From positions 22,716 to 86,715 of the forward strand of contig JBFWUM010000012.1 in the NCBI GenBank assembly GCA_050247255.1: DNA of 64,000 bases, written 5' to 3'. How positions within the stretch are numbered: position 1 is the first letter of the stretch; every line of letters starts with the position of its first letter. Under the pieces are notes generated by a model, which was given only the letters and a program-made list of their open reading frames with translations, was not told the DNA's origin and searched no databases. The stretch is from Vicinamibacterales bacterium (GTDB lineage Bacteria > Acidobacteriota > Vicinamibacteria > Vicinamibacterales > UBA2999). Below are positions 8,966 to 42,955 of this stretch, one piece after another. The position numbers and the translations under genes were made by a program.

Positions 8966-8990
8966 CGCCGACATCAAAGGAGTTCCGTCC

Positions 8991-9461: not shown

Positions 9462-9488
9462 CGAACCGCGAATGCACGGAGTTACTCA

Positions 9489-13875: not shown

Positions 13876-13891
13876 AGCAAGCGGCATTCCA
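13876..13891 (-). promoter_or_regulatory. Candidate sigma-54 promoter (-24/-12) of the activator gene
   Basis: Minus strand reads TGGAAT-GCCGC-TTGCT, with GG-N10-GC spacing as in TGGCAC-N5-TTGCW. It lies ~37 nt upstream of ATG 13839. Confidence 0.35.
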
Positions 13892-14009
13892 GTCCTGCCA
13901 CGCCTGGATCGGCGATTTCAGGCCGTTTTTTGTTCCGGCCTGGTCGGCAGGCCTTCAAGTTTGTTGGTTCACACGCCTGGCGCCACAAAGACGTCGCCAG
14001 AAATGTCTC

Positions 14010-15704
14010 TCAGCCCCTGGTCGTCAGGTAGGCGCGCCATCCGCCGTACGTCGTGATGTCGGTGGCCGTCGCCAGCGCCCACGGCTCGCACACGAATCCC
14101 TTGACCCAGGCGCCGTCGGCCAGCTGCACGCTGCCGATGCCGAGCGGCGGCGGGACGGCGGCGACGAAGCTGCCGAACCGCGCCTCCGGAACCGCCCACA
14201 CCTCGACGTCGATCCCTGGACCGGGAAAACCGGGCTCGCGCAGGAGCCCGGGCTTCGGCAGCGCGCCGCCCGCGAGCGCGAACAGGCGGTAGTCGGGCGC
14301 CGTGCGGAACGCCCCGATCAGCCGCCCGCCCCGGTCCACCAGCTGGTGATTGAGCGGCTGGCCGGCCAGGTGCGCGCCGACGACGGCGACGCGGACCGTC
14401 GCCCGGTCTTCGTCGTGCGTCTCGATCTGTTCGGCGAGCATGCGTCCCGCCAGCGCCATCAGCTCGCGATCGGTGAAGGCCGGGCCGATGAGCGAAATGC
14501 CGAACGGCAGGCCGTCGCCGCGGAACCCGGCGGGGACCGCAATGGCCGCGAGGTCGAGCAGGTTCACGAAGTTCGTGTAGTAGCCGAGGTTGCTGTTCAA
14601 CGCGATGGGATCCGCGAGCACCTGGCTGGTCTGGTAGATGGTGCCGGCGGTCGGCAACAGCAGCACGTCCATGCGTGACCACTGCACGGCCGCAGCGTGG
14701 CGGAGCGCCTCGAGGCGGTACTGCGCCCGGAACGCCTCCACCGCGCTGAAGCGGCGGCCACCGGCAATGATGCCGGCAACCACGGGATCGAGATCGTGCG
14801 GGCGGCGCTCGATGAACTCGCCGACGGCGGCAAAGCGCTCGGCCACCCAGGGTCCGGCATACAGCAACGCGGCCGCTTCCCGGAACGGGGTAAAGTCGAT
14901 CGGCACGCGGGTGCCGCCAAGCTGCTCGAGCCGCTCGGCCGCGGCCGCAAACAGGTGCGGCGTCTCGTCGTCGCCGAAGAACTCCAGGTCATCGTCAGCG
15001 GGCACGCCGAAGCGGAATGCCCCCTCCAGTGCCGGCACCGGCGGCGGCGCAAACGGCCGGGAGTAGGGGTCCTTCGGGTCGAATCCGCGCGCGATCCGCC
15101 ACACGCTGGCGGCATCGGCAACGCTGGACGCGAAGACCGAGACACAGTCCAGGCTGCGGCAGGCAGGCACGACCCCCGCGGTGCTGATCGCGCCGCGGGT
15201 CGGCTTCATCCCGACCAGGCCGTTGAACGCCGCCGGCACGCGCCCTGACCCCGCGGTATCGGTGCCGAGCGCGAACGCGCACAGCCCGCTGGCCACCGCG
15301 ACCGCCGACCCGGAGCTCGACCCGCCCGAAATGTAGCGATCGTCGAACACGCTGGAGCAGGCGCCGTATGGGGATCGGGTCCCGACCAGTCCGGTGGCGA
15401 ACTGATCGAGGTTGGTCTTGCCGATCAGGATCGCCCCGGCGTCGAGCAGCCGTTCGACCGCCGTCGCCGTGGTCCGCGCCGCGTAGCCGAACGAGGGGCA
15501 CCCGGCCGTCGTCGTCATGCCGGCGACGTCGATGTTGTCCTTCACGGCGAACGGGATGCCTGCCAGCGGCAGCGATGGATCCACGGTCCGCGCGCGCGCT
15601 ACCGCGGCCTCGCGGTCGGCGAGGGAAATCCAGACCGGCGCCATCCCCTCTTCAGCAATGCGATCGAAGATCGCCGCGATCCCGTCTGCCGTCAGGCGCC
15701 GCAC
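14010..15704 (-). CDS. Allophanate hydrolase (amidase-signature domain + C-terminal AH domain)
   Basis: Amidase signature GGSSSGSAVAVA and KDNIDVAGMTTTAG. Start placed at GTG 15704 (VRRLTADGIAAIFDRI), which overlaps the carboxylase stop by 13 nt. The ORF-track extension to 15926 lies inside the carboxylase gene. Confidence 0.85.
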   Translation of the reverse strand: MRRLTADGIAAIFDRIAEEGMAPVWISLADREAAVARARTVDPSLPLAGIPFAVKDNIDVAGMTTTAGCPSFGYAARTTATAVERLLDAGAILIGKTNLDQFATGLVGTRSPYGACSSVFDDRYISGGSSSGSAVAVASGLCAFALGTDTAGSGRVPAAFNGLVGMKPTRGAISTAGVVPACRSLDCVSVFASSVADAASVWRIARGFDPKDPYSRPFAPPPVPALEGAFRFGVPADDDLEFFGDDETPHLFAAAAERLEQLGGTRVPIDFTPFREAAALLYAGPWVAERFAAVGEFIERRPHDLDPVVAGIIAGGRRFSAVEAFRAQYRLEALRHAAAVQWSRMDVLLLPTAGTIYQTSQVLADPIALNSNLGYYTNFVNLLDLAAIAVPAGFRGDGLPFGISLIGPAFTDRELMALAGRMLAEQIETHDEDRATVRVAVVGAHLAGQPLNHQLVDRGGRLIGAFRTAPDYRLFALAGGALPKPGLLREPGFPGPGIDVEVWAVPEARFGSFVAAVPPPLGIGSVQLADGAWVKGFVCEPWALATATDITTYGGWRAYLTTRG

Positions 15705-18700
15705 CGTTCCTCCACGCGCAACACGGCCAGCTGCTGGCCGGCGGTGACCATGGCGCCCTTGCTGCACTGCACCAGCTCGATCACCCCTTCGCTCGGCGCG
15801 ACGATGGCGACCTCCATCTTCATCGCCTCGAGGACGAGGATCTTCTGCCCGGCGGCCACGCGCTGGCCTGGCTCCACGGCCACCTGCCACACGCTGGCGG
15901 TCATCGGCGACCGGACCGCCTCGCACCCGTCAGGGACGACCGCCGGCGCCGGCGGCGGCATGTCATCGGGCGGCTCGACGAACTCCGGCTGCCCGGCGGC
16001 CGCCCAGCGCTCGCGCTCGGCCACGAAGGCGGCCTGCTGCATCTGCTTGAAGGCGCGCGCCTCGGGCGCAATCGCATCGAGAAAGCGGTGGTAGCTGGCG
16101 AGGCTGAACTCGGTCTGCTCGATGCCGATGCTGTATTCACCGTGCGGGAACGCCTCGCGCATCTCCAGCAGTTCCGCCGCCGAGACCGGGAAAAAGCGAA
16201 TCTGATCGAAGAAGCGAAGCAGCCACGGTGAACCCGGCCGGAACTCCGCCGTGGTGCGGTAGGTGTTCCACATCTGCACGGTGCGGCCGACGAACTGGTA
16301 GCCGCCCGGCCCCTCCATCCCGTAGACGCAGAGGTAGGCGCCGCCGATGCCGACGGAGTTCTCGGCCGTCCAGGTCCGCGCCGGGTTGTATTTCGTCGTC
16401 ACCAGCCGATGGCGGGGGTCGATCGGGGTCGCCACCGGAGCGCCCAGGTAGACGTCGCCCAATCCGAGCACGAGGTACGACGCGTCGTAGACGATGTCGC
16501 GGACCTGGCTGATGGTGTCGAGCCCGTTGATGCGGCGGATGAACTCGGTGTTGCTCGGGCACCACGGCGCATCGGGGCGGACCGACTGCATGTACTTCTC
16601 GATGGCCAGCAGGGTCGCCGGGTCTTCCCAGGACAGCGGCAGGTGCACCACGCGGCTCGGGATCGTCAGGTCGTCGAGCGCCGGCAACGCCGCGTCGCAC
16701 TCGTCGAGGACGGCGAGCAGGCGATCGCGCGACAGCTGGCGGCTGTCGTAGTGGATCTGCAGCGAGCGGATACCGGGGGTGACATCGACGATGCCGCGCA
16801 GCCGCTGCTGGCGCAGCTGCTGCTCGAGCGCGTGGATGCGGAACCGCAGGTTGAGATCGAGTTCGTTGGGGCCCGTCTCGACCAGCAGGTAGCGGTCGCC
16901 CGCGGCCCTCGACACCGTCGCCGCGCCGCGGCGCACCACTGCCGGATCGCGCTGTTCGACATCCAGCGCTGGCAGGGCGCCGGCCAGGCGCGCGACGGCG
17001 CCGTCGAGCGCCCGCTCGAGACCCGTGGCCTGGGCCTCGGTCATGAAACGGAACCGCACAGTGTCGCCCGCGCGCAGCTGGCCGATCTTCCACAGCTCCG
17101 CCTGGGCGATCACCGCCGGGCAGACGAAGCCGCCAAGGCTGGGGCCGTCCGGACCGAGCAGGATCGGCATGTCGCCGGTGAAGTCCATCGCGCCGACGGC
17201 ATAGGCGTTGTCGTGCAGGTTCGACGGGTGCAGTCCCGCCTCGCCGCCGTCCCGGCGCGCCCACGTGGGCCGCGGTCCGATCAAGCGGACGCCGGTGCGA
17301 TCGGAGTTGTAGTGGACCTTCCACGTCGCGCCGAACAGCCGGCCGATGTCCTCGCCGGTGAAGAAGTCGGGCGCGCCGTGCGGGCCATACAACACGCCGA
17401 CGTCCCACTCGTTGGACCAGCGCGGCACGAGGTCGGCCGGCAACTGCTCTACCGGCGGCGTCGCCCGGTCGGGCGCGCCCCAACGCAGCATGTCGCCCGC
17501 GCGCAGCACCCGGCCGGCGTGGCCGCCGAACCGGCCGAGGATGAACGTGGATCGGCTGCCGAGGTACGACGGCACGTCGAGTCCGCCGCGGATCGCGAGA
17601 TACGCCCGGGCGCCAGCGGTCTCCGCCGCCCGCAACCGGAGCACCGCTCCCGCCGGCACCACGATCGACCGCCAGCGCTCCACCGGCGTGCCGTCGAGCG
17701 TCGCCCGCATGTCGGACCCACCGAGGGCGATGACCGTCGGCGCGTGGAAGCGGAGCGTCGGCCCGGTGAGCGTGCACTCGAGCCCGGCCGCCGACTCGGG
17801 ATTGCCGACGAGGCGATTGACCAGCCGGAACGAGAGCGTGTCCATCGGGCCTGACGGCGGAACGCCGACATGCCAGTACCCGAGCCGGCCGGGATAGTCC
17901 TGCACCGTGGTCTGCATGCCGGGATCCAGCACCTCGACCGCGTTGGGCCGGTACTCGATCCCGGCCAGGAACCGGGTCGGGAATCCGCCCGCCTGGAAGC
18001 CGGGCGTCGCCACCACCTGGCGCAGGTATTCGAGATTCGTCTCGAAGCCGGCGAACGAGGTGGCGGCCAGCGCGTCCTGCAGCCTGGCCACCGCGGCATC
18101 GCGCGTCTCGCCGCGGACGATGATCTTCGCGAGCATCGGGTCGTAGTACGGGGTGACCTCGGTGCCGGTGGCGACCCACCCATCGCAGCGCGCGTCCTCG
18201 GGCAGCCGCACCTCGGAGAGCGTCCCGGTGCTGGGGCGGAAGTCGTGGGCAGGGTCCTCCGCGTAGACGCGCACCTGGATCGCGGCGCCTTTCGGCACCA
18301 CGGCCAGCGACTCGAGCGGCGGCAGCTCGCCGGCGCCAAGCCGCACCATCCACTCCACCAGGTCGATGCCGGTCACTTCCTCCGTGACGCCGTGCTCGAC
18401 CTGCAGCCGGGTGTTCACTTCGAGAAAGAAGTACTCGTCGCGATCGGCGTCGTAGAGGAACTCGGCGGTGCCGGCGGAGCGGTATTGCACCGCGGCGGCG
18501 AGCCGCTCGGCGGTCTGCCAGAGGCGGCGGCGCGTGTCGTCGCTGAGCCCAGGCGCGGGCGTCTCCTCGATCACCTTCTGGTTGCGGCGCTGCGCCGAGC
18601 AGTCGCGCTCCCCCAGTGCCAGGACGCCGCCGCGCCCGTCGCCGAACAGCTGCACCTCGATGTGGCGGGCCCGCTCGACGAAGCGCTCCAGGTAGACGCC

Positions 18701-19282
18701 GCCCTGTCCGAAGTTGGCGGCGCCGAGGCGGGCGACCGGGGCGAAGTGCTCGCGCAGCTCCTGCGGCGTGCGGCAGACGCGCATGCCGATGCCGCCGCCA
18801 CCCGCCGTGCTCTTCAGGATCACCGGGTAGCCGCATCGCTCCGCCTCGGCGAGCGCGTGGTGCTCGTCGTCCAGCAGCCCGGTGCCGGGCAGCAGCGGGG
18901 CGCCGGCGGCCTCGGCGATCTCGCGCGCGGTGTGCTTGAGCCCGAGCTCGCGCATCTGCCCGGCGGTCGGTCCGAGAAACACGAGGCCGGCGCGTTCGCA
19001 CGCCTCGACGAAGCCGGCGTTCTCGCTGAGGAACCCGTAGCCCGGGTGAATGGCTTCGGCGCCGGTGCGGACGGCGGCGTCGAGGATGGCCGCCTGGTCC
19101 AGGTAGCTCTGGGCCGCCGGCGCTGGCCCGAGGCGCACGGCGGCGTCCGCCTGCGCCACGTGCGGCGCGTGGCGATCGGCATCGGAATACACTGCGACCG
19201 GCGAGACCCCCATTCGCCGGAGCGTGCGCAGCACGCGGCAGGCGATGGCCCCGCGGTTGGCAATGAGGACCTTACGGAACAT
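15692..19282 (-). CDS. Urea carboxylase family enzyme (biotin carboxylase + KipI/KipA-like carboxyltransferase + BCCP); possibly guanidine carboxylase
   Basis: 1196 aa. N-terminus [17 protein letters not shown] (biotin carboxylase ATP-grasp), central allophanate-hydrolase-subunit-like domains, and the C-terminal biotinyl motif LEAMKME. Confidence 0.95.
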   Translation of the reverse strand: MFRKVLIANRGAIACRVLRTLRRMGVSPVAVYSDADRHAPHVAQADAAVRLGPAPAAQSYLDQAAILDAAVRTGAEAIHPGYGFLSENAGFVEACERAGLVFLGPTAGQMRELGLKHTAREIAEAAGAPLLPGTGLLDDEHHALAEAERCGYPVILKSTAGGGGIGMRVCRTPQELREHFAPVARLGAANFGQGGVYLERFVERARHIEVQLFGDGRGGVLALGERDCSAQRRNQKVIEETPAPGLSDDTRRRLWQTAERLAAAVQYRSAGTAEFLYDADRDEYFFLEVNTRLQVEHGVTEEVTGIDLVEWMVRLGAGELPPLESLAVVPKGAAIQVRVYAEDPAHDFRPSTGTLSEVRLPEDARCDGWVATGTEVTPYYDPMLAKIIVRGETRDAAVARLQDALAATSFAGFETNLEYLRQVVATPGFQAGGFPTRFLAGIEYRPNAVEVLDPGMQTTVQDYPGRLGYWHVGVPPSGPMDTLSFRLVNRLVGNPESAAGLECTLTGPTLRFHAPTVIALGGSDMRATLDGTPVERWRSIVVPAGAVLRLRAAETAGARAYLAIRGGLDVPSYLGSRSTFILGRFGGHAGRVLRAGDMLRWGAPDRATPPVEQLPADLVPRWSNEWDVGVLYGPHGAPDFFTGEDIGRLFGATWKVHYNSDRTGVRLIGPRPTWARRDGGEAGLHPSNLHDNAYAVGAMDFTGDMPILLGPDGPSLGGFVCPAVIAQAELWKIGQLRAGDTVRFRFMTEAQATGLERALDGAVARLAGALPALDVEQRDPAVVRRGAATVSRAAGDRYLLVETGPNELDLNLRFRIHALEQQLRQQRLRGIVDVTPGIRSLQIHYDSRQLSRDRLLAVLDECDAALPALDDLTIPSRVVHLPLSWEDPATLLAIEKYMQSVRPDAPWCPSNTEFIRRINGLDTISQVRDIVYDASYLVLGLGDVYLGAPVATPIDPRHRLVTTKYNPARTWTAENSVGIGGAYLCVYGMEGPGGYQFVGRTVQMWNTYRTTAEFRPGSPWLLRFFDQIRFFPVSAAELLEMREAFPHGEYSIGIEQTEFSLASYHRFLDAIAPEARAFKQMQQAAFVAERERWAAAGQPEFVEPPDDMPPPAPAVVPDGCEAVRSPMTASVWQVAVEPGQRVAAGQKILVLEAMKMEVAIVAPSEGVIELVQCSKGAMVTAGQQLAVLRVEERCGA

Positions 19283-19932
19283 CAGTCAACGGGATCCCAG
19301 ATGAGCACGCGCACCGGCGTCGGGTTGTAGCCGTTGCAGGGGTTGTTCAGCTGCGGGCAGTTGCTGATCACCGCCAGGACGTCCATCTCGGCGCGCATCT
19401 CCACATACTTCCCCGGCGCCGACACGCCGTCCTCGAACGTCAGCTTCCCCTCCGGGGTGACCGGCACGTTCATGAAGAAGTTGATGTTGTGCGTGATGTC
19501 GCGCTTCTCCAGCCCGTGCCCCCAGCCCACGATCGCCTTGACGAAGCTCTGGCGGCAGGCGTGCATGTGCCGCTTCTCGATCGCGTAGCGCACCATGTTG
19601 CTCTCGGTGGCGCAGGCGCCGCCGAGCGTGTCGTGGCGGCCGCAGGTGTCGGCGACGATCGTCAGCAGCGTGTTGCCGCGCGACGACACCAGCCGCGTGC
19701 CGGCGGTCAGGTAGATGCTGCCCTGCTCGCGTATGGTGTCCTGCGCCGAGTAGCGATCCGCGGTGTCGCGCGCGTTGTAGAACAGGGTGTCAGCCGCCTG
19801 GTTGCCCTCGAGATCGACGATGCGGAAGTGCTGCCCCTCGCGGATTTCGTGGATCCACGGCTCGCCGGCGGGCACGACCTCGTCGTGCACGGCCAGCGCC
19901 GGGTCGAGTGGGCTCTCGATCAGGGCGGTCAC
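19282..19932 (-). CDS. Urea-carboxylase-associated protein, DUF1989 family (type 2; carboxyguanidine deiminase subunit-like)
   Basis: [18 protein letters not shown] and the C-terminal [16 protein letters not shown] are typical of DUF1989. Start chosen at GTG 19932 (GTGA overlap with the upstream stop) rather than the ORF-track start at 19992, which would overlap by 63 nt. Confidence 0.8.
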
Positions 19933-20666
19933 AGGAAGTACCTCTCCGTGAGCGTGAAGCCGCGGGCGTTCTCGGGTCTCGACAGCCGGCACTCATCGTC
20001 CGCGGCCGGCGGTGCCACGCGCCGGACCGACAGCGCGGCCGGCTTCGGGTCATAGTGCGCGTTGGGATCGAGCGGGTGCTGGCAGGTGTTGAGGATGACC
20101 AGCACGTTCATCTCGGCGCGCAGCTCCACGTGACTGCCGGCCGCCGAGTGGCCGGCCACGAAGACCATCCGCCCGGCGTCGTCCACCTGCACCTTGCTGA
20201 ACAGGTTGAGCGGGGCGACCATGTCGCGCTCGCCCAGGCCGTACTTCGCCAGCTCGATGACGAAGCTGTCGAACGCATTTCGGTGACAGGCGTTGAGGTG
20301 CTCCTGGTACCGCGCGCCGCCGTACTTGGCCTCGACGAGCGCGGCGTTGGCACACCCGCTGAGCGGATCGTGCCAGCCGACGCTGTCGCTGGTCATCGAG
20401 CAGAGGATGCGCCCCATGTCGGAATAGAGCACGAACCCGCGTGTGAGGCGCGCGATGTGCTGCGCCTTCAGCGTGTCCGGCATGTTGTACCGCTCGGTCG
20501 GGTTGTCGGCGTTGTAGAACAAGGCTCCGACATTGGCGCCGCCCGCGACATCCGTGATGCGCAGCGCCGTGCCGCGCTTCAACACGTGCGACCAGGTCGC
20601 GCCCGGCTCTACCCGATCGTCGAACAACGGAATGTGTGGGCCGGCGTCAGCCGGCCCGGATTCCAT
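19929..20666 (-). CDS. Urea-carboxylase-associated protein, DUF1989 family (type 1; carboxyguanidine deiminase subunit-like)
   Basis: [36 protein letters not shown] and NTCQHPLDP. Paralogous to the next gene. ATG 20666 shares one nt with the upstream stop; ATG 20693 is an alternative. Confidence 0.8.
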
Positions 20667-21664
20667 CACGGCTGCTTCGGGTCGATGCGCCATACGTTCT
20701 CCTGACGGATGTTCGACAGCCAGACCGAGCCGTGCCCGACGCGCACCGCGTCGCCGCCCAGTCCGAACCACTGCTTCACGACGCGGTTCGTTTCCGGGTC
20801 GATCTGCGTCAGCGGCACCTCGAACACGGTGACCCAGACGAAGCCTTCGCCGTAGGCGATCTCGCCGCCGCCGCCGGGCACACCCACCTCGATGTTGGTG
20901 ACCAGCTTCCGCGTCTTCACGTCGACGCGCGAGACGGTGCCGTCGCCCTGGTTGAGCGTCCAGATGGCGCCGCCGCCGACAGTGGTGAAGCGCGGGTTCG
21001 GCCCGACCGCGACGCGATCGGTAATCAGGTTGGTCGCCGGATCGATCCGGACGATCACGCTCTCCTGCGTGCTGACGGCCCAGATCGCCTTGTCCTCGCC
21101 GAGCACGACGACCGACGACCCTTTCGGCACGGCGATCTCGGCAACGACGCGGTTGGTGTCCGGGTCGATGCGCGACAGCACGCCGCTCATGTCGCTGAGC
21201 ATCCAGATGCTGTCCTCGGTGGCGGTGAGGCCGCCCTCGCTCAGGGCCGGGCCCACCGTCAGCGTCGCCGCCACGGTGTTGGTCTTCGGATCGATCCGCT
21301 GCAACCCCTTGGTCTCGGGCTTGTCCTGCTCGCCGCAGATCGGCACCCAGATGCTGCCGAACGCCGCCACCAGCCCCGAGCACGGGCGCGTGGCGGTCTC
21401 GACCAGCGTGACCACCATGTTGGTCTTCGGGTCGAGACGTCCGACCAGGTTCTTGCGGCCGCTCGTCACCCACACCGCATCCTCGGTCACCACCTGCCAG
21501 TCCGGGTTCCCCGGGATCGGGAATTCGGCGATCGGCTTGAGCGCGGTCATCTCGCGCTTGACGCCTGGTGTGGACACGCCGGGCCGCGGCGGGCGATTCG
21601 GCTGCTGGGCGCCGACCCCGGCGACCCACACACCCAGCAACCCAACGACCACCATATTTCTCAT
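20666..21664 (-). CDS. Secreted seven-bladed beta-propeller protein (YVTN/Vgb-like repeats)
   Basis: Signal MRNMVVVGLLGVWVAGVGAQ. Seven repeats of the form xIWxxxxxxxxVxRIDPxTNxVxxxIxVG, for example LSRIDPDTNRVVAEIAV and IVRIDPATNLITDRVAVG. Confidence 0.75.
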   Translation of the reverse strand: MRNMVVVGLLGVWVAGVGAQQPNRPPRPGVSTPGVKREMTALKPIAEFPIPGNPDWQVVTEDAVWVTSGRKNLVGRLDPKTNMVVTLVETATRPCSGLVAAFGSIWVPICGEQDKPETKGLQRIDPKTNTVAATLTVGPALSEGGLTATEDSIWMLSDMSGVLSRIDPDTNRVVAEIAVPKGSSVVVLGEDKAIWAVSTQESVIVRIDPATNLITDRVAVGPNPRFTTVGGGAIWTLNQGDGTVSRVDVKTRKLVTNIEVGVPGGGGEIAYGEGFVWVTVFEVPLTQIDPETNRVVKQWFGLGGDAVRVGHGSVWLSNIRQENVWRIDPKQP

Positions 21665-21666
21665 TT

Positions 21667-25831: not shown

Positions 25832-25839
25832 GCCGCTCC

Positions 25840-27288
25840 CTACGCGATGATGTCGTGAATGACCTTGCCCTCGGTATCCGTCAGCCGGAAGTTCCGTCCG
25901 CTGTAGTGATACGTGAGCTTGGTGTGATCGATCCCGAGCAGGTAGAGCATCGTCGCGTGCAGGTCGTGCATGTGCACCTTGTTCTCGACCGCCTTGAAGC
26001 CGAAGTCATCGGTCGCGCCGTACGACATGCCGCCCTTGATGCCGCCGCCCGCCAGCCAGATCGAGAACCCGGTGACGTTGTGATCGCGGCCGTTCACCAC
26101 GCCGGCGACGTTCTCGTTCGCCGTCTGGATCGCTGGCGTGCGCCCGAACTCCGTGGCGCCGACGATCAACGTGTCCTCGAACAGCCCGCGCTGCTTCAGG
26201 TCCTTGATCAGCGCCGCGTAGGCCTGATCGGAGTCCCTGGCGAGCTTCCGGTAGGTCATGATGTCGTTGTGCGCGTCCCACGGGTCGCCCTTGCCGTAAT
26301 AGGTCTGCACGAAGCGGACGCCCTTCTCGACCAGCCTCGCCGCCATCAGGCAGCCGAGCGCCGTATTGCCGGGCCCGTACATCTCGAGCGTCGCCTTGCT
26401 CTCCTTGCTGACGTCGAACACGTTGGGCGCGTCGGTCTGCATCCGGAACGCGGTCTCCATCGTCTCGATCGACGCGTCGAGGTCTGAGTCGCGCTCCCGC
26501 ACCCGTTCGAGGTGCATCTCGTTCATGTGGCGCAGGAACCCGATGTCACGCAGCTGCCGCTCTTCCGGCGCGCTGCGGACGATGTTGGGGATGACCTTGT
26601 CGGCCTGGAACGCCTCGTCTTCCACCCACTTGTTGTGGACCAGCGTGCCCTGGTGCACCGCCGGCAGGAACGCCGACGTCCACAGCGGGCTGCCGATGGT
26701 CAGCGGCTCGGTCGGCGTCAGCACGACGAACCCCGGCAGGTTCTCGTTCATCGTGCCGAGACCGTAGGTGACCCACGAGCCCATCGACGGGCGGCCGAGG
26801 AAGTTGGCGCCGGTGTTGAGCATGGTCAGGCTCGGCTCGTGGTTCGGGATATCGGCATACATCGACTTGACGACGCAGATGTCGTCGGCGACGCCGCCGA
26901 GGTGCGGCCAGAGATCGCTGATCTCGAGGCCGCTCTTGCCCCACCGCTGGAACGCGAACGGCGACTTCATCAGGTTGCCGGTCTTGCGCTGCGTCAGGAT
27001 CGGTCCGCCCGGCGTCGGCTGGCCGTGGTACTTGTCGAGCATCGGCTTGTGGTCGAACGTGTCGACGTGCGACATGCCGCCGTTCATCATCAGGAAGATC
27101 ACCCGCTTCGCCCGCGGCTTGAAGTGCAGCTGCTTGAGCACGCCGCCGGTGGCCGGCAGGTCGAGCGCCTGCGCCTGCGCCAGCGAGGTGTTGAGCATCT
27201 GCGACAGGGCGAGCAGGCCGAAGCCGCTCCCGAGGCGGCCCAGGGCCTGGCGTCGCGTCACCGGTCGAAAAATGTGGTTGCAGGACAT
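25840..27288 (-). CDS. DUF1501 domain protein (sulfatase/phosphatase-fold, Tat-exported)
   Basis: Start at ATG 27288 (GGGAGA RBS). Tat-like TRRQALGRLGSGFGLLALSQ, and MNGGMSHVDTFDHKP typical of DUF1501. Confidence 0.85.
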   Translation of the reverse strand: MSCNHIFRPVTRRQALGRLGSGFGLLALSQMLNTSLAQAQALDLPATGGVLKQLHFKPRAKRVIFLMMNGGMSHVDTFDHKPMLDKYHGQPTPGGPILTQRKTGNLMKSPFAFQRWGKSGLEISDLWPHLGGVADDICVVKSMYADIPNHEPSLTMLNTGANFLGRPSMGSWVTYGLGTMNENLPGFVVLTPTEPLTIGSPLWTSAFLPAVHQGTLVHNKWVEDEAFQADKVIPNIVRSAPEERQLRDIGFLRHMNEMHLERVRERDSDLDASIETMETAFRMQTDAPNVFDVSKESKATLEMYGPGNTALGCLMAARLVEKGVRFVQTYYGKGDPWDAHNDIMTYRKLARDSDQAYAALIKDLKQRGLFEDTLIVGATEFGRTPAIQTANENVAGVVNGRDHNVTGFSIWLAGGGIKGGMSYGATDDFGFKAVENKVHMHDLHATMLYLLGIDHTKLTYHYSGRNFRLTDTEGKVIHDIIA

Positions 27289-27298
27289 CCGTATCTCC

Positions 27299-30200
27299 CT
27301 AGTCGATGAAGAGGAACTCGTTCGAGCTGATGAGCGCCCAGGCAAACGACCGCAGCGGCGAGTCGGGCAGCCGCTTCGGCGCGTCCTTCGCGTCCGTGCC
27401 GTCGGCCCCCTGCTCGGCCTGCGGCACCGGCGGCGGCGTGTCCGCCTGCGGCGGCTTGTCGATGAACGCCATCGACACCGAGAGCTCCTCGGGCGTCGGC
27501 CGGCGCTGGTAGATCCGCTCGAAGGCCTGCGTCACCTTCGCCTGCGGGGTCCCGGCCGTCTCGAGCGAGTCGGCGATGCGATCGGCCTGCCGCTGCACCA
27601 GGGCGCTGTTCAGGAAGAACAGCCGCTGCTGCGGCACGTTGGTCGTGTAGCGCTTCTCCGTCGAGATGGTCGCAGTCGGCAGGTCGAAGGTGGCGTGGAA
27701 GTCGGCCGGATACATCCGGCTCACCTTCGCGTAGACCGCGCGCCGCTTCATCTTGTCGTCGAGGTCCGCCGACGGCCCGCCGATGCCGGAGAGGTCGAGC
27801 TCGCCTGACGTCTGGAGCAGCAGGTCCCAGACGCCTTCCGAGTCGATCCGCTGCCGGTTCGCGCGCCAGTAGAGCGTGTTGCTCGGGTCGCGGCCGACGT
27901 TGGCGGCGATCGGCGCGGCGCTGAGCTGGTAGGTCCGGGACATCAGGATGTCCTTGTGCAGCTTCTTGAACGACCGGCCGTCGGCGATGAACTTCGCGGC
28001 CAGGAAGTCGAGCAGCTCCGGGTGGGTCGGCCGGTCGCCGGCCATCCCGAAGTTGCTCGGCGTGTCGACGATGCCGCGGCCGAAGTGCCAGCGCCAGACG
28101 CGGTTGACGATGACCCGCGCCGAGATCGGGTGGGCGATGATGTCCTCGGCGAGCTGCAACCGGCCGCTGCCCTCGGTATAGACCTTCGCCTGGCCGCGGT
28201 TGAGGATCGACGGGAACCCTCGCGGCGCGTCGACGCCGAAGGTGTAGGGGTTGCCGCGCGTGAACACCTTGAGGTCCGACGGCTGCTCCGCCTCGCCGAT
28301 GCCGTAGATGGCCGGCGGCCGCGGCGGCATCGCCTTGCGGAACGCCTCGATGTCGGCGCGCTGCCTGTCGATGTGCAGCCTGAAGTCGGCCGACAGCCGC
28401 CGTTCGAGCGCGCCGCCCGTCAGTTTGAGCACCCCGGGCACCGGCCGCGCGTTGTCGTCCATGTCCTCGGCGGTCGCCTCGGGCACGTCGCGGTCGAACA
28501 CGTCGCGCCACAGCAGCTGCTCTTCGCGGTCGAGGCTCTTCAGGTCGATCTGGTAGTTGTTCAACCGGCGTTTCTTGCCGTTCGGCAGCGGATCGGCCGG
28601 GTCCTTGTCGTCCTTGACCGATGCCAGCAGGATCTCGTTCTCCTTCGAGAGCTTGAGGTACTTCTCGTTGACCTCCGCGACCGTGGCGACGAACTCGGCC
28701 GCCAGCTTCTTCGCCTGCTCCTCGGTGCCGCCGAGCGACACCATCTCCTGCCAGGTCTTGAGCGCCGAGTAGTTGTCCGGCCGCTTCTTGAGGAAGCGTT
28801 CCCAGCGCCGCAGCAGCTCCGGATCCAGCTTCGCCTCCTCGGCGATGTCCTCGACGGTCGCCTTCTTCTCCTTGCCGAGCTTCCAGGCCGCCACCATGTA
28901 CGCCTCGGCCTGCGAGAACAGGACCTGCGCGTAGACGTCGGAGGCGTCCTCGAGGAACTGGCGCAGGTCGGCCTGCTTCTTCTCGAGGACCTTGTTCTCC
29001 TTCTCCCATTCGTCGGCGACCGACTTCGGCACCCGCGGGTACGACTTGAAGTTCGAGCTGGCGAAGATGCTCGCCATCCCGTAGTAGTCCTTCGAGTAGA
29101 TGGCGTCGTACTTGTGGTCGTGGCAGCGGGCGCAGCCCACGGTGACGCCCATGAAGGCCTTGCTGGTGACGTCGACCTTGTCGTGCCACTCGTCGGCGCG
29201 TTCGATCGGCGCCGGACTGGCCTGGAAGATCCAGATGCCGTTGCCGTGGAAGCCGAGCGCCGGCAGGTGCGAGTCGCGGATCCGGTCCGGCAGCAGATCG
29301 GCGGCCAGCTGCGCCTTGACGAACATGTCGTACGGCATGTCGTCGTTGAGCGCGCGGATCAGCCAGTCGCGATACAGGTAGGCGAACGGATACTTCTCGG
29401 TGCGGTCCGGGCGACCGCCGACGTTGTAGTCCTCTTCGCCGTAGCGGGCGACGTCCATCCAGTGGCGGGCCCAGCGCTCTCCGTAGCGCGGAGACGCCAG
29501 CAGCCGGTCGACGACCTTCTCCCAGGCGTCGGGGCTCTGGTCGTTCTCGAAGGCCTGCACCTCCTCGTAGGTCGGCATCAGGCCGGTCAGGTCATACGTG
29601 ACGCGCCGCAGCAGCGTGCGGCGGTCGGCCGTCGTCGTCGGCTTCAGGCCCTCCTTCTCGAGCCGGGCCAGCACGAACCGGTCGATGTCGGTGATCGGCC
29701 AGGCGGCGTCCTTGACCGCCGGCGGCTGGTGCGTGCCGAGCAGCTGCACCGACCAGAGGTTCTTCTGCTCGTCCGAATAGGTCTTCTGCGGGGTCGTGTC
29801 GACCGGCCAGTAGGCGCCGTCCTTCACCCAGGTGACGAAGAAGGCGATCTGCTCCTCGGTCAGCCGCGTGCCCCCCTTGGGCATCCGCAGCGTGCCGCTG
29901 TGCTTGAGCGCGGCGATGATCAGGCTGCGATCCGGGTCACCGGGAACGATCGCCGGCCCCGACGCGCCGCCCTCGAGCAACCCGGCGCGCGAATCGAGCC
30001 GCAGCCCGCCGCTCTTCTGCGCGCCGTGGCAGGCGAAGCACTGCTGCGCGAGCACCGGACGGATGTGCGTCTCGAACTGATCGCTCAGCACCGCCTCGGG
30101 CTTGGTGCCGGCCTGCACCTCGGGCCACGCGGCCCCGTCCGCGATCCACGCCTCGAGACCGGCGATGGTCGCATCGCTCAACTTGTCGGCGCCGAGCGGC

Positions 30201-30526
30201 ATCTTCAGCGCCGTCGTGTGCCTGAGCGCGGTGATCAGCAGGCTCTTCGACGGATCGCCGGGCACGATGGCCGGGCCCGACTTGCCGCCGGTCAGCAGGC
30301 CCTCGCGCGAATCGAGCCGGAGCCCGCCCATCGCCGTCGGGCCGTGACAGCTCGAGCAGCTCTGGGCCAGGACCGGGCGGACGTTCTTTTCGAAGAACTC
30401 CGTCTGTGTCGGCGTCGGTGCCGGTGCAGCCGTCGCCCCCTGCGACGACTGTGCGGTGAGCGCCCCGGTGTAGACGAACAGCGCCAGCGGCAGCAGTGCC
30501 GCCAGCGCAGTGAGAAACCGTGTCAT
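27299..30526 (-). CDS. PSCyt1/PSCyt2(DUF1549)/PSD1(DUF1553) multidomain protein (planctomycete-type cytochrome c domains)
   Basis: 1075 aa with a signal peptide and two FFEKNVRPVLAQSCSSCHG / IRPVLAQQCFACHG haem-like CxxCH modules, followed by long DUF1549/DUF1553-like regions. It has the canonical pairing with a downstream DUF1501 gene. Confidence 0.85.
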   Translation of the reverse strand: MTRFLTALAALLPLALFVYTGALTAQSSQGATAAPAPTPTQTEFFEKNVRPVLAQSCSSCHGPTAMGGLRLDSREGLLTGGKSGPAIVPGDPSKSLLITALRHTTALKMPLGADKLSDATIAGLEAWIADGAAWPEVQAGTKPEAVLSDQFETHIRPVLAQQCFACHGAQKSGGLRLDSRAGLLEGGASGPAIVPGDPDRSLIIAALKHSGTLRMPKGGTRLTEEQIAFFVTWVKDGAYWPVDTTPQKTYSDEQKNLWSVQLLGTHQPPAVKDAAWPITDIDRFVLARLEKEGLKPTTTADRRTLLRRVTYDLTGLMPTYEEVQAFENDQSPDAWEKVVDRLLASPRYGERWARHWMDVARYGEEDYNVGGRPDRTEKYPFAYLYRDWLIRALNDDMPYDMFVKAQLAADLLPDRIRDSHLPALGFHGNGIWIFQASPAPIERADEWHDKVDVTSKAFMGVTVGCARCHDHKYDAIYSKDYYGMASIFASSNFKSYPRVPKSVADEWEKENKVLEKKQADLRQFLEDASDVYAQVLFSQAEAYMVAAWKLGKEKKATVEDIAEEAKLDPELLRRWERFLKKRPDNYSALKTWQEMVSLGGTEEQAKKLAAEFVATVAEVNEKYLKLSKENEILLASVKDDKDPADPLPNGKKRRLNNYQIDLKSLDREEQLLWRDVFDRDVPEATAEDMDDNARPVPGVLKLTGGALERRLSADFRLHIDRQRADIEAFRKAMPPRPPAIYGIGEAEQPSDLKVFTRGNPYTFGVDAPRGFPSILNRGQAKVYTEGSGRLQLAEDIIAHPISARVIVNRVWRWHFGRGIVDTPSNFGMAGDRPTHPELLDFLAAKFIADGRSFKKLHKDILMSRTYQLSAAPIAANVGRDPSNTLYWRANRQRIDSEGVWDLLLQTSGELDLSGIGGPSADLDDKMKRRAVYAKVSRMYPADFHATFDLPTATISTEKRYTTNVPQQRLFFLNSALVQRQADRIADSLETAGTPQAKVTQAFERIYQRRPTPEELSVSMAFIDKPPQADTPPPVPQAEQGADGTDAKDAPKRLPDSPLRSFAWALISSNEFLFID

Positions 30527-30545
30527 CCGATGCTCCCCCTTGTCC

Positions 30546-33500
30546 CTAGAACTCGTAGCGAAGCGCGAACTGCATCACGCGGGCGGGCGCCGCCGCGGTG
30601 AACTGGCCGAAGGTCGCCGGCGAGTTGGCGTCGAGCGAGATGCGCGTGAAGTTCACGTTGTTGAAGGCGTTGAACGCCTCGGCCCGGAACTGAATCCGGT
30701 GGCGGTTCGGCAGCGTCACCGACTTGGTCAGCGAGATGTCGGCGTTGACGTAGTCGTCGAGCCGCACCGCGGCGCGGGTGCCGACCTCGCCCGGCAGCAT
30801 CGGCAGCCAGTTGGCCGCCGCCTCCTGCGGGTCGGCGAAGATGCCCGGCTGCCCGTTCGCGTTCATCTGCACCTGCGCCTCCTCGTCACCGGTGGCGTAG
30901 GCGAGCGTCGTGAACGAGAAGTTGGTCGGCCACAGGCCGCTGTAGGCAACCGCCGACGGCAGCGCCGAGCGGTAGCGGAAGATCGTCGACAGCTGCCAGC
31001 CGCCGACCAGCCCGTCGAGGATCGGGCCGGCGTTGCCGAGCAGCGGCTTGCCGCGGCCGAACGGCAGCTCGAGCAGGACGTTGCTGTTGATGTTGTGGCG
31101 GACGTCGAAGTCCGAGTCCCCGTAGAACGAGTCGAGGTCGTACGGGTTCAGCATCAGGCCGCCGGCGCTGCCGCCGCCCGATTCGGGGGCGCCACCGTTG
31201 TCCATCGCGTGCGCCAGTGTGTAGTTGACGTCGAACGAGACACCGGCGCTGAACGATTTGCGCAGCGACACCAGCAGCGCGTTGAAGTTCGAGTAGCCGG
31301 CGTTGGTCCACATCGACATGCCGCTGCTCTGCGTCGGATACATCGTGTAGCAGCCGGTGGCGATGATGCAGTTGGGGTACGCCGCCGACTTCACCCGGTC
31401 GATGGCGTGTACCGCGTCGGCGTCCGAGCCGCCGAACTGCCCCCAGATCAGGTCGTAGTAGTTCGCCGTCGCGCTGCCGGAGAAGAACATGTTGGCCAGC
31501 GCCGGCGCCTGGTTCTCGATCCACGGGATCGGCGTCACCAGCGACGGGTTGGCGCGGACCTGTGCCGGCGTGATGCCGGCGTCGTGGACGGCGCGGATGG
31601 CGTGCGCCATCTCCTTCCAGGTCTGCCCGGAGGCCTGGTCCTTGAACAGAATCGACCAGCCGCCGGCGTCGGTCTGCATCAGCAGGTCACGCGACCAACG
31701 CCCCATGTAACCGACCTCCGCCGACAGCCCGCCGCGCAGCTCGCGCGCTACCGAGACGTTGGCGTTGAACGAATACGGCGCGTGCAGCGTCGAGTCGATG
31801 CCCATGTAGTTGCCGCCGATGAAGTTGACCTCCGGCGGCGTGAACGGGAAGGCGTGGACGGTAGCCGCGGGAATCAGCGGCGTCGTCCCGCTGTAGCGCG
31901 TGCCGGTGGTGAAGTTCACCGACGACGACCGCACCACCTCCGACAGGCCGAACGAGGCGCTGTTGTCGAACTGCGTCACCAGGTCGCTGCCGAAGCGGTC
32001 GTAGGTCAGTCCGGCGCCGGCGCGGATGACGCCGCCGCTGCCGGTCAGCTTCGAGAGAAACCCGCCTTCCGGCGTGTAGGCGATGGCCACGCGCGGGGCA
32101 AAGTTGTTGTGATCCGCGCCGTACCAGCTGGCCTTGCCATTCGCGGGGCCGATGAAGTCGTACGACAGCAGGCTGTTGGTCATCTGGTTCATCGGCAGGC
32201 CGGCATCCATCGCCGCCAGCCGCTCCTGCCAGAACTCCTGCAACGGGAAGGTCGGCGCCACCTGCAGCCCGCTGGTCTCGTAGGGCACGCCGAGGTTGAC
32301 GTAGCGCACGCCGTAGGTCAGCGTCAGGTTCGGCGTCATGCGCCAGTTGTCGCCGAAGTAGAGCTCGAACTCGTTGCTGGCAAACGTCCGCGTCGTCGGC
32401 TCGCCGATGGCCAGCGGGTTGCCGAGCCCGTCGTAGCTGTAGGTCATCGAGGCGCCGGTGACGATGCCGAACAGGTCGAGGAACGCCCGGCTCACCGAGT
32501 TCGCGTCCGCCAGCCGGATGCCCGGGCCGTAGGTGGCCGCCAGGTAGTTGTTGGCGAGCGCGGTGATGTCCGAGCCGAGGCCGAGCAGCGAGCCGCGATT
32601 GATCGAGATGCTCGGGAAGGCGTTGCTGTAGTTCGTCCGCGTGTTGCGGATGAACCGCAGGTTGCCGCCCATCGTCATCGTGTGCGTCCCCTTGGTCCAG
32701 GTGAGGTCGTTGACGATGTTGTAGGTCGGTGCCTCGCGCTCGAACGGCCGCGTGTAGTCGTTGAGGGCGGCGACGCTGTCCATCGAGAACGACGGGCCGA
32801 CCTGGCCGGTCTGCGACAGCCGGACGTTGGTCAGGCCGAAGTTCGTGACGTTGACCAGGTTCGAGGCGAGGACGCCGGTGTAGGCAGCCGAGACGCCATA
32901 GCTCTTGTTGAGCGCCACCGACGCCGCGTCCTGGCCGGGGAACTGCGCCAGCACGCGATCCTCGGAGTTATCGGCGAACGTCGCGCGCACCGAGAGGTTG
33001 TGCGCGCTCTGGTTGTCGAGCTTGACGTCGAACTTCATCACGTAGGCGCGGTTGTCGAGCGTCAGCGGCGCGTTGAAGCGGTAACCGGCGAAATTGAGGC
33101 CGACGTCACGGCCGAGCGAGGGATCGTTCCCTTCCGGCAGCGCGTTGAGAATCGCCAGCATCGCCGGGTTGACGCCGAGCCCGAGTGGGTCAATGGCCTT
33201 GATGGCGTCCGGACCGAGGGCGTAGGTCTGACCGTTGGTGGCGCGGGCCATGATGATCCCCTGCCGCAGCGTGTCGGAGCCGACGTTGCGCGTCTCGCCA
33301 CGGGCGCTGTCGTCGGTGCGCCGCTCGAAATTGCCGAAGAAGAAGACGCGGTCGCGCACAATCGGGCCGCCGAGCGACACGCCGTACTGGTTGCGCTTGA
33401 GCTGCTCCTTCGGGATGCCCGCACGGTTGTTGAACCAGGTGTTCGAGGAGAACTTCGTGTCGCGGTTGTACTCGTAGCCCGACCCGTGGAACTGATTGGT

Positions 33501-34259
33501 GCCGCTCTTGGTGACCAGCGATACCTGGCCGCCGGAGCTGCGTCCCTGGTTGGCGTTCTGCCCGCCGACGGTGACGCGGAACTCCTGCACAGAATCGAGC
33601 GGCACCGGCAGCACGGCGTTGAACCCGCTCTCGCGCTGCTGGCCGGTGTTCAGGCCGCCCTGCTGGCCGTTGCCATCCGCGGCCTGGAGGCCTGCGGTCT
33701 GGTTGTCGTTGATGTCGACGCCGTCGAGGGTGATGTTGTTCTGGTCGCGGCGCGCGCCGACCACTTCGCCGGTCGGCGTCACCCCGGGCTGCAGGCTGAG
33801 CAGCTCGACGACGTTGCGCGTCAGCAGCGGCAGCGCCCGCACCTGCAGTTCGTTGAAGGCGTTGCCGACCGAGGCGTCGACCGTGTTGATCGTCTGGATC
33901 GTCGCCTCGACGCTGACCGTTTCCGCCAGGCCGGCGAGCTCGAGCCGCACGTCGGCGGTCGCCGGCGTGTTCACCTGCAGCGTGACCGCACTCGACGCGG
34001 TCTGGAAGCCCTGCAGCTCCGCTGTCAGCGTATAGGTCCCGGGCGGCACCTGGAGGAACTGGTAGTTGCCCGTTTCGTCGGTGTAGACCGTGCGCGAGAA
34101 CGACGTCTGCTCGTTGACGAGCGTCAGCGTCACGCCCGGGATGGCGGCGGCCTGCGCATCGCCAACCTTGCCTCTCAGCGAGGAAGTGGCCTGCGCGAAC
34201 GCCGACACCGTGATCGACAGGACAACGGCGGCGAGTACAAGGATCCGGCTGCGGTGCAT
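30546..34259 (-). CDS. TonB-dependent receptor with N-terminal carboxypeptidase-regulatory-like domain
   Basis: Start ATG 34259 (GGAGG 10 nt upstream). Signal MHRSRILVLAAVVLSITVSAFAQ, CarboxypepD_reg pattern GVTLTLVNEQT..TDETGNYQFLQVPPGTYTLTAELQGFQ, and a C-terminal aromatic ..ALRYEF. Confidence 0.85.
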   Translation of the reverse strand: MHRSRILVLAAVVLSITVSAFAQATSSLRGKVGDAQAAAIPGVTLTLVNEQTSFSRTVYTDETGNYQFLQVPPGTYTLTAELQGFQTASSAVTLQVNTPATADVRLELAGLAETVSVEATIQTINTVDASVGNAFNELQVRALPLLTRNVVELLSLQPGVTPTGEVVGARRDQNNITLDGVDINDNQTAGLQAADGNGQQGGLNTGQQRESGFNAVLPVPLDSVQEFRVTVGGQNANQGRSSGGQVSLVTKSGTNQFHGSGYEYNRDTKFSSNTWFNNRAGIPKEQLKRNQYGVSLGGPIVRDRVFFFGNFERRTDDSARGETRNVGSDTLRQGIIMARATNGQTYALGPDAIKAIDPLGLGVNPAMLAILNALPEGNDPSLGRDVGLNFAGYRFNAPLTLDNRAYVMKFDVKLDNQSAHNLSVRATFADNSEDRVLAQFPGQDAASVALNKSYGVSAAYTGVLASNLVNVTNFGLTNVRLSQTGQVGPSFSMDSVAALNDYTRPFEREAPTYNIVNDLTWTKGTHTMTMGGNLRFIRNTRTNYSNAFPSISINRGSLLGLGSDITALANNYLAATYGPGIRLADANSVSRAFLDLFGIVTGASMTYSYDGLGNPLAIGEPTTRTFASNEFELYFGDNWRMTPNLTLTYGVRYVNLGVPYETSGLQVAPTFPLQEFWQERLAAMDAGLPMNQMTNSLLSYDFIGPANGKASWYGADHNNFAPRVAIAYTPEGGFLSKLTGSGGVIRAGAGLTYDRFGSDLVTQFDNSASFGLSEVVRSSSVNFTTGTRYSGTTPLIPAATVHAFPFTPPEVNFIGGNYMGIDSTLHAPYSFNANVSVARELRGGLSAEVGYMGRWSRDLLMQTDAGGWSILFKDQASGQTWKEMAHAIRAVHDAGITPAQVRANPSLVTPIPWIENQAPALANMFFSGSATANYYDLIWGQFGGSDADAVHAIDRVKSAAYPNCIIATGCYTMYPTQSSGMSMWTNAGYSNFNALLVSLRKSFSAGVSFDVNYTLAHAMDNGGAPESGGGSAGGLMLNPYDLDSFYGDSDFDVRHNINSNVLLELPFGRGKPLLGNAGPILDGLVGGWQLSTIFRYRSALPSAVAYSGLWPTNFSFTTLAYATGDEEAQVQMNANGQPGIFADPQEAAANWLPMLPGEVGTRAAVRLDDYVNADISLTKSVTLPNRHRIQFRAEAFNAFNNVNFTRISLDANSPATFGQFTAAAPARVMQFALRYEF

Positions 34260-34327
34260 CGAGAGGAACCTCCGAAATAGCAAAACGGCGAATGGACGGA
34301 TGCCAGTCCGCGGATGCCGGCGTGTGG

Positions 34328-34343
34328 TGCAAGCGAAATGCCC
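34328..34343 (-). promoter_or_regulatory. Candidate sigma-54 promoter (-24/-12) of the TonB-receptor-to-allophanate-hydrolase array
   Basis: Minus strand reads GGGCAT-TTCGC-TTGCA (consensus TGGCAC-N5-TTGCW, correct GG-N10-GC spacing). The -12 element is ~68 nt upstream of ATG 34259. Confidence 0.5.
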
Positions 34344-39215: not shown

Positions 39216-39221
39216 GGCACC

Positions 39222-40868: not shown

Positions 40869-40880
40869 CGCGCGCTGCCG

Positions 40881-41906: not shown

Positions 41907-41957
41907 GTCAGCCTCCGAAGGAAATCTGGTGAGTGATCAGCGCCGCGGCCGGCGCGG

Positions 41958-42950: not shown

Positions 42951-42955
42951 GGCCG

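Follow-up and report, generated by a model that had tools for sequence, protein, structure and literature searches.

A conserved but modular gene array in Acidobacteriota links a sodium:solute symporter-type permease and exported proteins to the guanidine carboxylase pathway

The window analyzed here is a 64,000-nucleotide stretch of DNA from a Vicinamibacterales bacterium of the phylum Acidobacteriota (GenBank assembly GCA_050247255.1, contig JBFWUM010000012.1, positions 22,716 to 86,715 of the forward strand), and its subject is an array of 11 consecutive minus-strand genes, running from 34259 to 14010, in which genes for an outer-membrane barrel, exported proteins and a permease are joined to those of a predicted guanidine assimilation pathway. 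A co-directional array with these limits had been proposed in an initial annotation of the same DNA, and both the listing of open reading frames (ORFs) and third-position GC content, which is high in all 11 minus-strand frames of a window with an overall GC of ~68%, bear out the reading frames. In the 5'-to-3' direction the genes encode the outer-membrane barrel, a PSCyt/PSD1 protein, a DUF1501 protein, a first propeller (propeller-1), a metallo-beta-lactamase (MBL) fold protein, a sodium:solute symporter (SSS) permease, a second propeller (propeller-2), DUF1989 proteins of the TIGR03425 and then the TIGR03424 type, a biotin-dependent carboxylase and an allophanate hydrolase, with a candidate promoter ahead of the first gene:

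34328..34343, minus strand: candidate sigma-54 (-24/-12) promoter, GGGCAT-N5-TTGCA, with its 5' end 84 nt before the first ATG
30546..34259, minus strand: outer-membrane beta-barrel of 1237 aa, Oar-subclass-like (signal peptide, CarboxypepD_reg, OMP_b-brl_4)
27299..30526, minus strand: exported PSCyt1-PSCyt1-PSCyt2-PSD1 protein of 1075 aa (Pfam; three CxxCH motifs)
25840..27288, minus strand: DUF1501 protein of 482 aa (Pfam, 6e-137; twin-arginine-like signal)
24071..25831, minus strand: propeller-1, 586 aa, YVTN/Vgb-lyase-like (Pfam, signal peptide, structure model)
23097..24074, minus strand: exported MBL-fold protein of 325 aa (Pfam, conserved metal site, model)
21667..23100, minus strand: SSS permease of 477 aa (PF00474)
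20666..21664, minus strand: propeller-2, 332 aa, with signal peptide, YVTN/Vgb-lyase-like (Pfam; paralogue of propeller-1)
19929..20669, minus strand: predicted carboxyguanidine deiminase subunit, DUF1989 of the TIGR03425 type (327.8 bits, cut-off 206)
19282..19932, minus strand: predicted carboxyguanidine deiminase subunit, DUF1989 of the TIGR03424 type (349.3 bits, cut-off 285)
15692..19282, minus strand: predicted biotin-dependent guanidine carboxylase of 1196 aa (TIGR02712, 1833 bits; Asp700 and Asp943)
14010..15704, minus strand: predicted allophanate hydrolase of 564 aa (TIGR02713, 788.8 bits)

Neighboring genes are separated by 19 nt (30546/30526), 10 nt (27299/27288), 8 nt (25840/25831) or 2 nt (21667/21664), or else share 4-nt ATGA/GTGA overlaps, of which there are four (24071-24074, 23097-23100, 20666-20669 and 19929-19932), or a 1-nt overlap at 19282 between the TIGR03424-type DUF1989 and carboxylase genes; the carboxylase and allophanate hydrolase genes overlap by 13 nt (15692-15704) if the hydrolase starts at the GTG at 15704. 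These figures depend on the start codon chosen for each ORF, and the previously listed gaps and overlaps match the ORF coordinates at every junction. Hydrophobic, signal-like N-termini are present in all six non-cytoplasmic soluble or outer-membrane proteins, as had been claimed for the exported set, and in none of the four cytoplasmic enzymes. The suggestion that gene order follows cell topology stands only approximately, because the permease gene lies between the genes of two exported proteins, MBL and propeller-2. GC content is 0.71 across the guanidine pathway genes (14001-20000), slightly above the 0.67-0.69 of the accessory genes (20001-34000), and no tRNA genes were found in the window.

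As judged by family models and signature residues, the array's cytoplasmic half is the known guanidine carboxylase pathway. The window proteins exceed the cut-offs of TIGR02712, TIGR03424, TIGR03425 and TIGR02713, and both DUF1989 subunit types are encoded by adjacent genes with a 4-nt overlap. In a full-length alignment of the carboxylase to urea carboxylase of Kluyveromyces lactis (3va7/5i8i), D700 of the window enzyme is aligned to N1330 and D943 to D1584. Guanidine carboxylases are set apart by Asp at K. lactis position 1584 together with Asp, not Asn, at 1330 (Palatinszky et al., after Schneider et al. 2020; PMC11410670), and because both signature residues are Asp, guanidine rather than urea is the predicted substrate; the carboxylases of all 10 linked loci likewise have Asp at every diagnostic position covered by the alignment. 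The route from this carboxylase through a carboxyguanidine deiminase of two DUF1989 subunits to allophanate hydrolase has already been published (PMC11410670, PMC12186494), so the term "undescribed pathway" used in the initial annotation does not fit this half of the array; its placing of the sink in urea/guanidine assimilation, on the other hand, is supported as regards guanidine by the carboxylase signature and the two DUF1989 subunits.

An alternative sink would be urea, handled by a urea amidolyase-type system in which a DUR3-like SSS urea permease is fed by periplasmic breakdown of ureides. NCBIfam does label the enzyme a urea carboxylase, and the binding protein of the importer found in relatives (see below) a "putative urea ABC transporter", and in yeast an SSS urea permease goes together with urea amidolyase. 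Against this stand the Asp, not Asn, that the window enzyme shares with those of all linked loci at the position of K. lactis 1330, and the presence of both DUF1989 subunits, which are carboxyguanidine deiminases (PMC11410670, PMC12186494), and we regard a urea sink as very improbable and keep guanidine as the predicted end substrate.

How guanidine would reach these enzymes is suggested by the SSS permease and by what replaces it elsewhere. PF00474 spans residues 34-420 of the protein, TIGR00813 scores 122.5 bits, under its cut-off of 184, and the protein reaches none of the equivalog models. Among solved structures its best relative is CHT1, a Na+/choline transporter (9e-17), and this kinship fits weakly with an organic cation, e.g., guanidinium, as the cargo. 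The case for the permease as importer of the carboxylase substrate comes mainly from two arrangements in related loci (numbered with the prefix L). In the first, a TIGR03427-type ATP-binding cassette (ABC) transporter occupies the exact SSS site, between the MBL and propeller-2 genes, in L098, L101 and L164, which keep propeller-1, MBL, propeller-2 and the pathway and are otherwise 83-85% identical to the window; in the second, that of L083, the four pathway genes are accompanied by nothing but a divergent SSS homologue of 70% identity. The ABC binding protein matches TIGR03427 (urea-carboxylase-associated) at 461-479 bits, for a cut-off of 334, and this type of transporter is treated in the literature as the guanidine importer of the pathway (PMC11410670, PMC12186494). 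The SSS permease is thus well placed as the inner-membrane importer that had been proposed, and probably represents a guanidine importer of a new type. The ABC transporter also adjoins the MBL gene in 12 loci, directly following it in four (L031, L036, L048 and L051), and no other accessory gene is tied as tightly to the importer as MBL.

The conservation of the array was assessed in two samples. For the first, the MBL-fold protein served as anchor in a scan across GTDB species, each represented by a single genome. The family proved large and highly conserved, with >4000 matches, many at 65-89% identity; the best 79 loci, nearly all labelled Acidobacteriota, were retained and the window proteins compared with them by tblastn. 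The second, of metagenome contigs, was anchored on the first DUF1989 gene (carboxyguanidine deiminase). The whole 11-gene order is kept in two Vicinamibacterales loci, L003 and L005, at 65-86% amino-acid identity, and across the covered part of six cut-off loci (L002, L004, L006-L008 and L120); a homologue look-up with propeller-1 added L165, whose order is identical to that of the window, including a divergent DUF5916 gene, and L164, which differs from the window order only by the ABC transporter in place of the SSS gene.

In Bryobacterales, Solibacteraceae and Terriglobales at least six rearranged architectures join the same families (e.g., L014/L016, L017/18/20, L024, L033/42/63, L037, L075 and L162/163). 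L014 and L016 have propeller, PSD1, DUF1501, propeller and MBL, with pathway or importer genes nearby; L017/18/20 have the DUF1989 pair, PSD1, DUF1501, propeller-1 and two MBL genes, with the barrel on the other strand; L037 has two propellers, the DUF1989 pair, carboxylase, hydrolase and MBL; L075 has propeller, DUF1989 pair, carboxylase and hydrolase, then MBL and barrel; and L162/163 have barrel, MBL, propeller (opposite strand), PSD1, DUF1501, DUF1989 pair, carboxylase, hydrolase and ABC transporter. A further locus, L065 of the cultured Granulicella rosea DSM 18704, has carboxylase, hydrolase, barrel (opposite strand) and MBL and is without the PSD1/DUF1501 pair. Within 10 kb of the MBL gene, pathway enzymes were found in 19 of the 79 loci, pathway enzymes or importer in 30, PSD1/DUF1501 in 29, a propeller in 28 and the barrel in 22, where we estimate the chance of a single-copy 7-kb cluster lying within 10 kb in a genome of 5-9 Mb at ~0.5%. 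When 1066 neighboring ORFs were clustered all against all, the families present in more than five loci were the cluster's own and the TIGR03427-type ABC transporter (permease, binding protein and ATPase) only.

Synteny is thus kept beyond this genome (L003, L005 and L165, and shuffled in Bryobacterales and Terriglobales), which is how the comparative-genomics check suggested in the initial annotation turned out, and the array is a conserved but modular unit. That its modules came together by chance in this one genome has nothing in its favor beyond their separability, and the recurrence of the same order or families in dozens of loci and three orders leaves such a juxtaposition a negligible probability; we rejected it.

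Among the outer-membrane and exported proteins, the barrel combines CarboxypepD_reg (PF13620, 3.4e-20) with OMP_b-brl_4 (PF25183, 4e-132) and has a TonB-box-like ETVSVEA at residue 113. Plug-like motifs were noted by eye, and Pfam finds neither a Plug nor a TonB_dep_Rec domain in the protein, Plug being absent in residues 100-260 even at E = 10. Its earlier designation as a TonB-dependent receptor is therefore backed by the Oar-subclass architecture and the TonB-box-like motif, but not by Pfam. Guanidine is too small to require TonB-dependent import, and the barrel might instead work outward, like Oar of Myxococcus, secreting one or more of the signal-bearing enzymes, with guanidine freed outside the cell and entering via porins. 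The architecture would suit this, since the Oar subclass is marked by a CarboxypepD_reg extension and a large barrel and Oar itself is needed for protein secretion, but most characterized TonB-dependent transporters are importers (PMC6434023), and the heme-c and Tat-exported partners suggest periplasmic electron transfer. We consider an outward-working barrel improbable; the protein may import a substrate, as had been proposed.

The partners in question are encoded by the next two genes, which are adjacent (10-nt gap) and whose products both have export signals: the PSCyt/PSD1 protein has three CxxCH heme-c motifs, at residues 57, 163 and 465, and the DUF1501 protein has an RR motif in a twin-arginine (Tat)-like signal, TRRQAL. 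A sequence search of the PDB returned no relative of the barrel, the PSD1 or the DUF1501 protein. DUF1501 is the usual gene partner of PSCyt/PSD1 proteins (PMC3542564), and the two form a conserved pair in Planctomycetes and Verrucomicrobia; the proposals made for it are electron transfer and an enzyme that bears a cofactor and is exported by Tat (PMC3542564, PMC5615132); literature searches on the functions of DUF1501, DUF1553, DUF1800 and DUF1549 found nothing relevant.

The two propellers are paralogues with 45% identity. A model of propeller-1 (pLDDT 89.7) places a beta-sandwich and an alpha/beta domain after a seven-bladed propeller; Foldseek returned generic seven-blade matches only (a YVTN surface-layer propeller, BtuG, virginiamycin B lyase and YncE), and no Pfam family matched the conserved C-terminal 257 aa. 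Of the accessory genes, propeller-2 has the closest tie to the DUF1989 pair, often lying directly upstream of it, and in the deiminase-anchored sample a propeller holds that position in 9 of the 47 contigs with sufficient flank.

In the MBL-fold protein the two-metal HxHxDH site is complete, with H145, H147, D149, H150, H204, D223 and H263 invariant in 53 sequences, and Cys64 and Cys87 are conserved. Its AlphaFold model (pLDDT 78) confirms the metallo-beta-lactamase fold, and the Foldseek matches, chlorothalonil dehalogenase (6uxu) and B1 lactamases at TM ~0.47 and 12-17% identity, are at fold level only. The family often occurs in tandem, as two to four genes (L052, L056, L057, L059 and L017-L020), and as fused double-MBL proteins of ~470-570 aa, the duplicated or fused set including P0003-P0008, P0016 and P0057. 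A small stand-alone PSCyt1 c-type cytochrome (CARCH) follows the MBL gene in L065 (10940-11398) and L072 (7339-7773), so the MBL-fold protein may work with a heme-c partner; as a general MBL partner we rejected this cytochrome, seen as it was in these two loci only. Also recurring near MBL are a periplasmic glutathione-peroxidase-like gene and a LysR regulator (L065, L073-L075).

Not a guanidine riboswitch but a sigma-54 promoter ahead of the first gene probably drives expression of the array. Such riboswitches, though not obligatory, are usual in the operons described for this pathway; neither the window nor seven related loci gave an Rfam match to one at gathering score. The element listed above is a promoter candidate because its position is kept in relatives, and not because of the single window match: CGGCAC-N5-TTGCT lies at -89 in L081 and at -82 in L164, a CGGCGC variant occurs in L165, and overall such -24/-12 elements stand ~75-89 nt upstream of the first gene in four relatives, in flanking sequence that is not conserved. 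With the strict pattern, the loci outside Vicinamibacterales gave no further matches upstream of cluster genes. Scans for sigma-70 promoters and intrinsic terminators gave nothing above shuffled controls, so no internal transcript boundaries were found.

Downstream of the array, a sigma-54 activator of 368 aa (12733-13839, minus strand), with a short coiled-coil N-terminus and no receiver or sensor domain, is preceded by a -24/-12-like element of its own (TGGAAT-N5-TTGCT, 13876-13891, minus strand). It was considered as the regulator of the array, and we rejected it as a conserved part of the cluster, since it is absent after the hydrolase in L081 and a relative was found near one distant locus only (L134). 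Upstream, a DUF5916/CBM9-like gene (34633-36819, plus strand) is divergent from the array; the same divergent neighbor is kept in L164 and L165, and it may therefore share an intergenic control region with the array. A GAF-ANTAR type regulator is encoded directly upstream of the DUF1989 pair in L110 (9150-9986) and L111 (6685-7965), loci without the accessory genes, and may represent another riboswitch-independent mode of control of the guanidine pathway.

Taken together, we consider it moderately probable that the array is a composite nitrogen-scavenging operon of three separable modules, the first of which (module A) frees guanidine for the known pathway. In module C, the four cytoplasmic enzymes, guanidine would be carboxylated with ATP, the product deiminated to allophanate by the two-subunit DUF1989 enzyme, and allophanate hydrolyzed, for three NH3 in total. 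Module B, the SSS permease, would carry the carboxylase substrate over the inner membrane, the job of the ABC transporter in relatives; the species that crosses would already be guanidine, because every other non-pathway protein has an export signal. Module A, made up of the Oar-type barrel, the heme-c PSCyt/PSD1 protein, the Tat-exported DUF1501 protein, both propellers and the two-metal MBL enzyme, would work extracytoplasmically on a guanidino compound that is larger or scarcer, and free guanidine from it. Comparative genomics points to the role of module B, and co-localization to that of module A, for which guanidine release would be the best inference by analogy with enzymes that convert substituted guanidines: in Vreelandella, a methylguanidine hydroxylase and a lyase inside a guanidine carboxylase operon make guanidine from methylguanidine (PMC12508155).

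A number of observations weigh against this picture of one operon with one substrate. In the MBL-anchored sample, none of the other families turned up within 10 kb of MBL in 34 of the 79 loci, module A being optional, and among the deiminase-anchored contigs of at least 7 kb only 10 of 30 contain accessory genes. L081 has lost propeller-1 and has no MBL gene, with the remainder kept, and in L166 (1837-17471) barrel, PSD1, DUF1501 and propeller-1 have an RND efflux pair and an M20 peptidase after them in place of MBL, importer and pathway, which indicates that the upstream module is reused with other partners. PSD1/DUF1501 and Oar-type barrels are multi-copy families, so that part of their co-occurrence could be background, and the locus counts are not independent events because the compared loci are mutually related. 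Structure searches with module A proteins give fold-level matches only; the sigma-54 pattern, at 19 matches in the window for 22.9 expected, is not above chance; and a single transcript is supported only indirectly, by gaps of at most 19 nt or overlaps and by the scans for promoters and terminators. As to L081, a 31-aa ORF (9909-10004, MTRLLFFAFCLSAAVREWIKTKWPFQSVEAP) between its DUF1501 and SSS genes resembles the beginning of a signal peptide joined to the C-terminal ~18 residues of propeller-1 (in the window, AVREWVAAKWPFKNVEYR), a deletion remnant by which propeller-1 would have been lost in that lineage.

Such separability is what would be expected of a co-regulated nitrogen-scavenging island, in which barrel, PSD1, DUF1501 and propeller-1, with or without MBL, handle an unrelated nitrogen substrate under the same signal, e.g., sigma-54-dependent nitrogen limitation. 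Besides the reuse of the upstream genes in L166 and the scarcity of the accessory module at deiminase-anchored loci, this reading draws on 14 MBL-anchored loci that have PSD1/DUF1501 and no guanidine genes within 10 kb, and on the presence of other nitrogen-releasing enzymes near the array in the window (gamma-glutamyltranspeptidase and a formamidase-like protein). It accounts less well for the 2-19 nt gaps or overlaps across module boundaries, for a linkage that is shuffled yet repeated in three orders, for the MBL gene directly before a guanidine-type ABC importer in four loci and for propeller-2 directly upstream of the DUF1989 pair in many, and we hold it to be rather unlikely. The composite operon in which module A supplies guanidine is the reading that we retain.

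Carried further, this reading would make PSD1/DUF1501, the propellers, MBL and barrel a new extracytoplasmic machine that captures a natural guanidino compound and frees guanidine from it, perhaps oxidatively and with electrons passing to the heme-c domains; it would give DUF1501 and PSD1 their first function, constitute a major route of guanidino-nitrogen mining by soil Acidobacteriota and define, in the SSS permease, a new class of guanidine importers. We put this fuller version forward tentatively, as a possibility. What is new here is the conserved linkage of a permease and exported proteins to the guanidine pathway, and what is known is the pathway itself. The literature searched contains no description of this gene composition, in agreement with the earlier statement that no characterized system has it, and no mention of the guanidine carboxylase pathway in Acidobacteria.

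Guanidine has recently been recognized as a real metabolite and nitrogen source whose natural sources have been called a major gap (PMC12186494), and an operon in which the sink for guanidine is coupled to proteins of uptake and processing suggests where the guanidine in the environment might originate. Acidobacteriota are among the most abundant soil bacteria, and the array points to their mining guanidino compounds. PSCyt/PSD1 and DUF1501, very large families without a function since 2004-2012 (PMC3542564, PMC5615132), gain a defined metabolic neighbor and with it a first testable role; the SSS-for-ABC swap predicts a new type of guanidine transporter; and the related locus in cultured G. 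rosea DSM 18704 (L065, which is without the PSD1/DUF1501 pair) makes function approachable by experiment. Elsewhere in the window, two regions (37911-43001, minus strand, and 7202-11036, plus strand) encode further candidate nitrogen- or amide-releasing and periplasmic enzymes, and the neighborhood genes include an MFS transporter, a gamma-glutamyltranspeptidase, a formamidase/acetamidase-like protein, an esterase, a pyrroloquinoline quinone dehydrogenase and a DUF6282 amidohydrolase-like protein with cupin domains.

Among known systems, the guanidine operons of Pseudomonas syringae, Raoultella and Klebsiella have the same four cytoplasmic enzymes, the same signature residues, an in-operon importer and a role in nitrogen assimilation. 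The window array differs from them in having a sigma-54-like promoter in place of a guanidine-I or -II riboswitch, an SSS permease rather than an ABC or APC importer, and six exported or outer-membrane genes fused upstream. Yeast DUR3 with DUR1,2 likewise combines an SSS permease with biotin carboxylase and allophanate hydrolase, whereas the window carboxylase has the guanidine signature and needs a DUF1989 deiminase, and the nearest solved relative of the window permease is a choline transporter.

The operon of Vreelandella boliviensis, with MgdH and N-(hydroxymethyl)guanidine lyase (PMC12508155), resembles the array in containing accessory genes, which there turn a substituted guanidine into guanidine; its accessory enzymes, a 2-oxoglutarate dioxygenase and a small lyase, are cytoplasmic, whereas those of the window belong to unrelated families with export signals and include an outer-membrane barrel. 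The PSCyt/PSD1-DUF1501 pair of Planctomycetes and Verrucomicrobia shares domains, pairing, a Tat-like DUF1501 signal and heme-c motifs with that of the window, but was described without a function or a defined metabolic neighbor (PMC3542564, PMC5615132), whereas the window pair sits in an Acidobacteriota array, predicted to be an operon, with a known sink. Bacteroidota polysaccharide utilization loci and the BtuB-BtuG system, which are built around a TonB-dependent transporter, likewise encode a CarboxypepD_reg barrel along with an importer of the inner membrane and exported proteins for processing or binding, and propeller-1 matches the BtuG propeller at fold level. In contrast to them, the window array is without a SusD-like gene, a propeller lipoprotein cysteine and glycoside hydrolases, and its end product would be a nitrogen source where theirs is a sugar or a vitamin.

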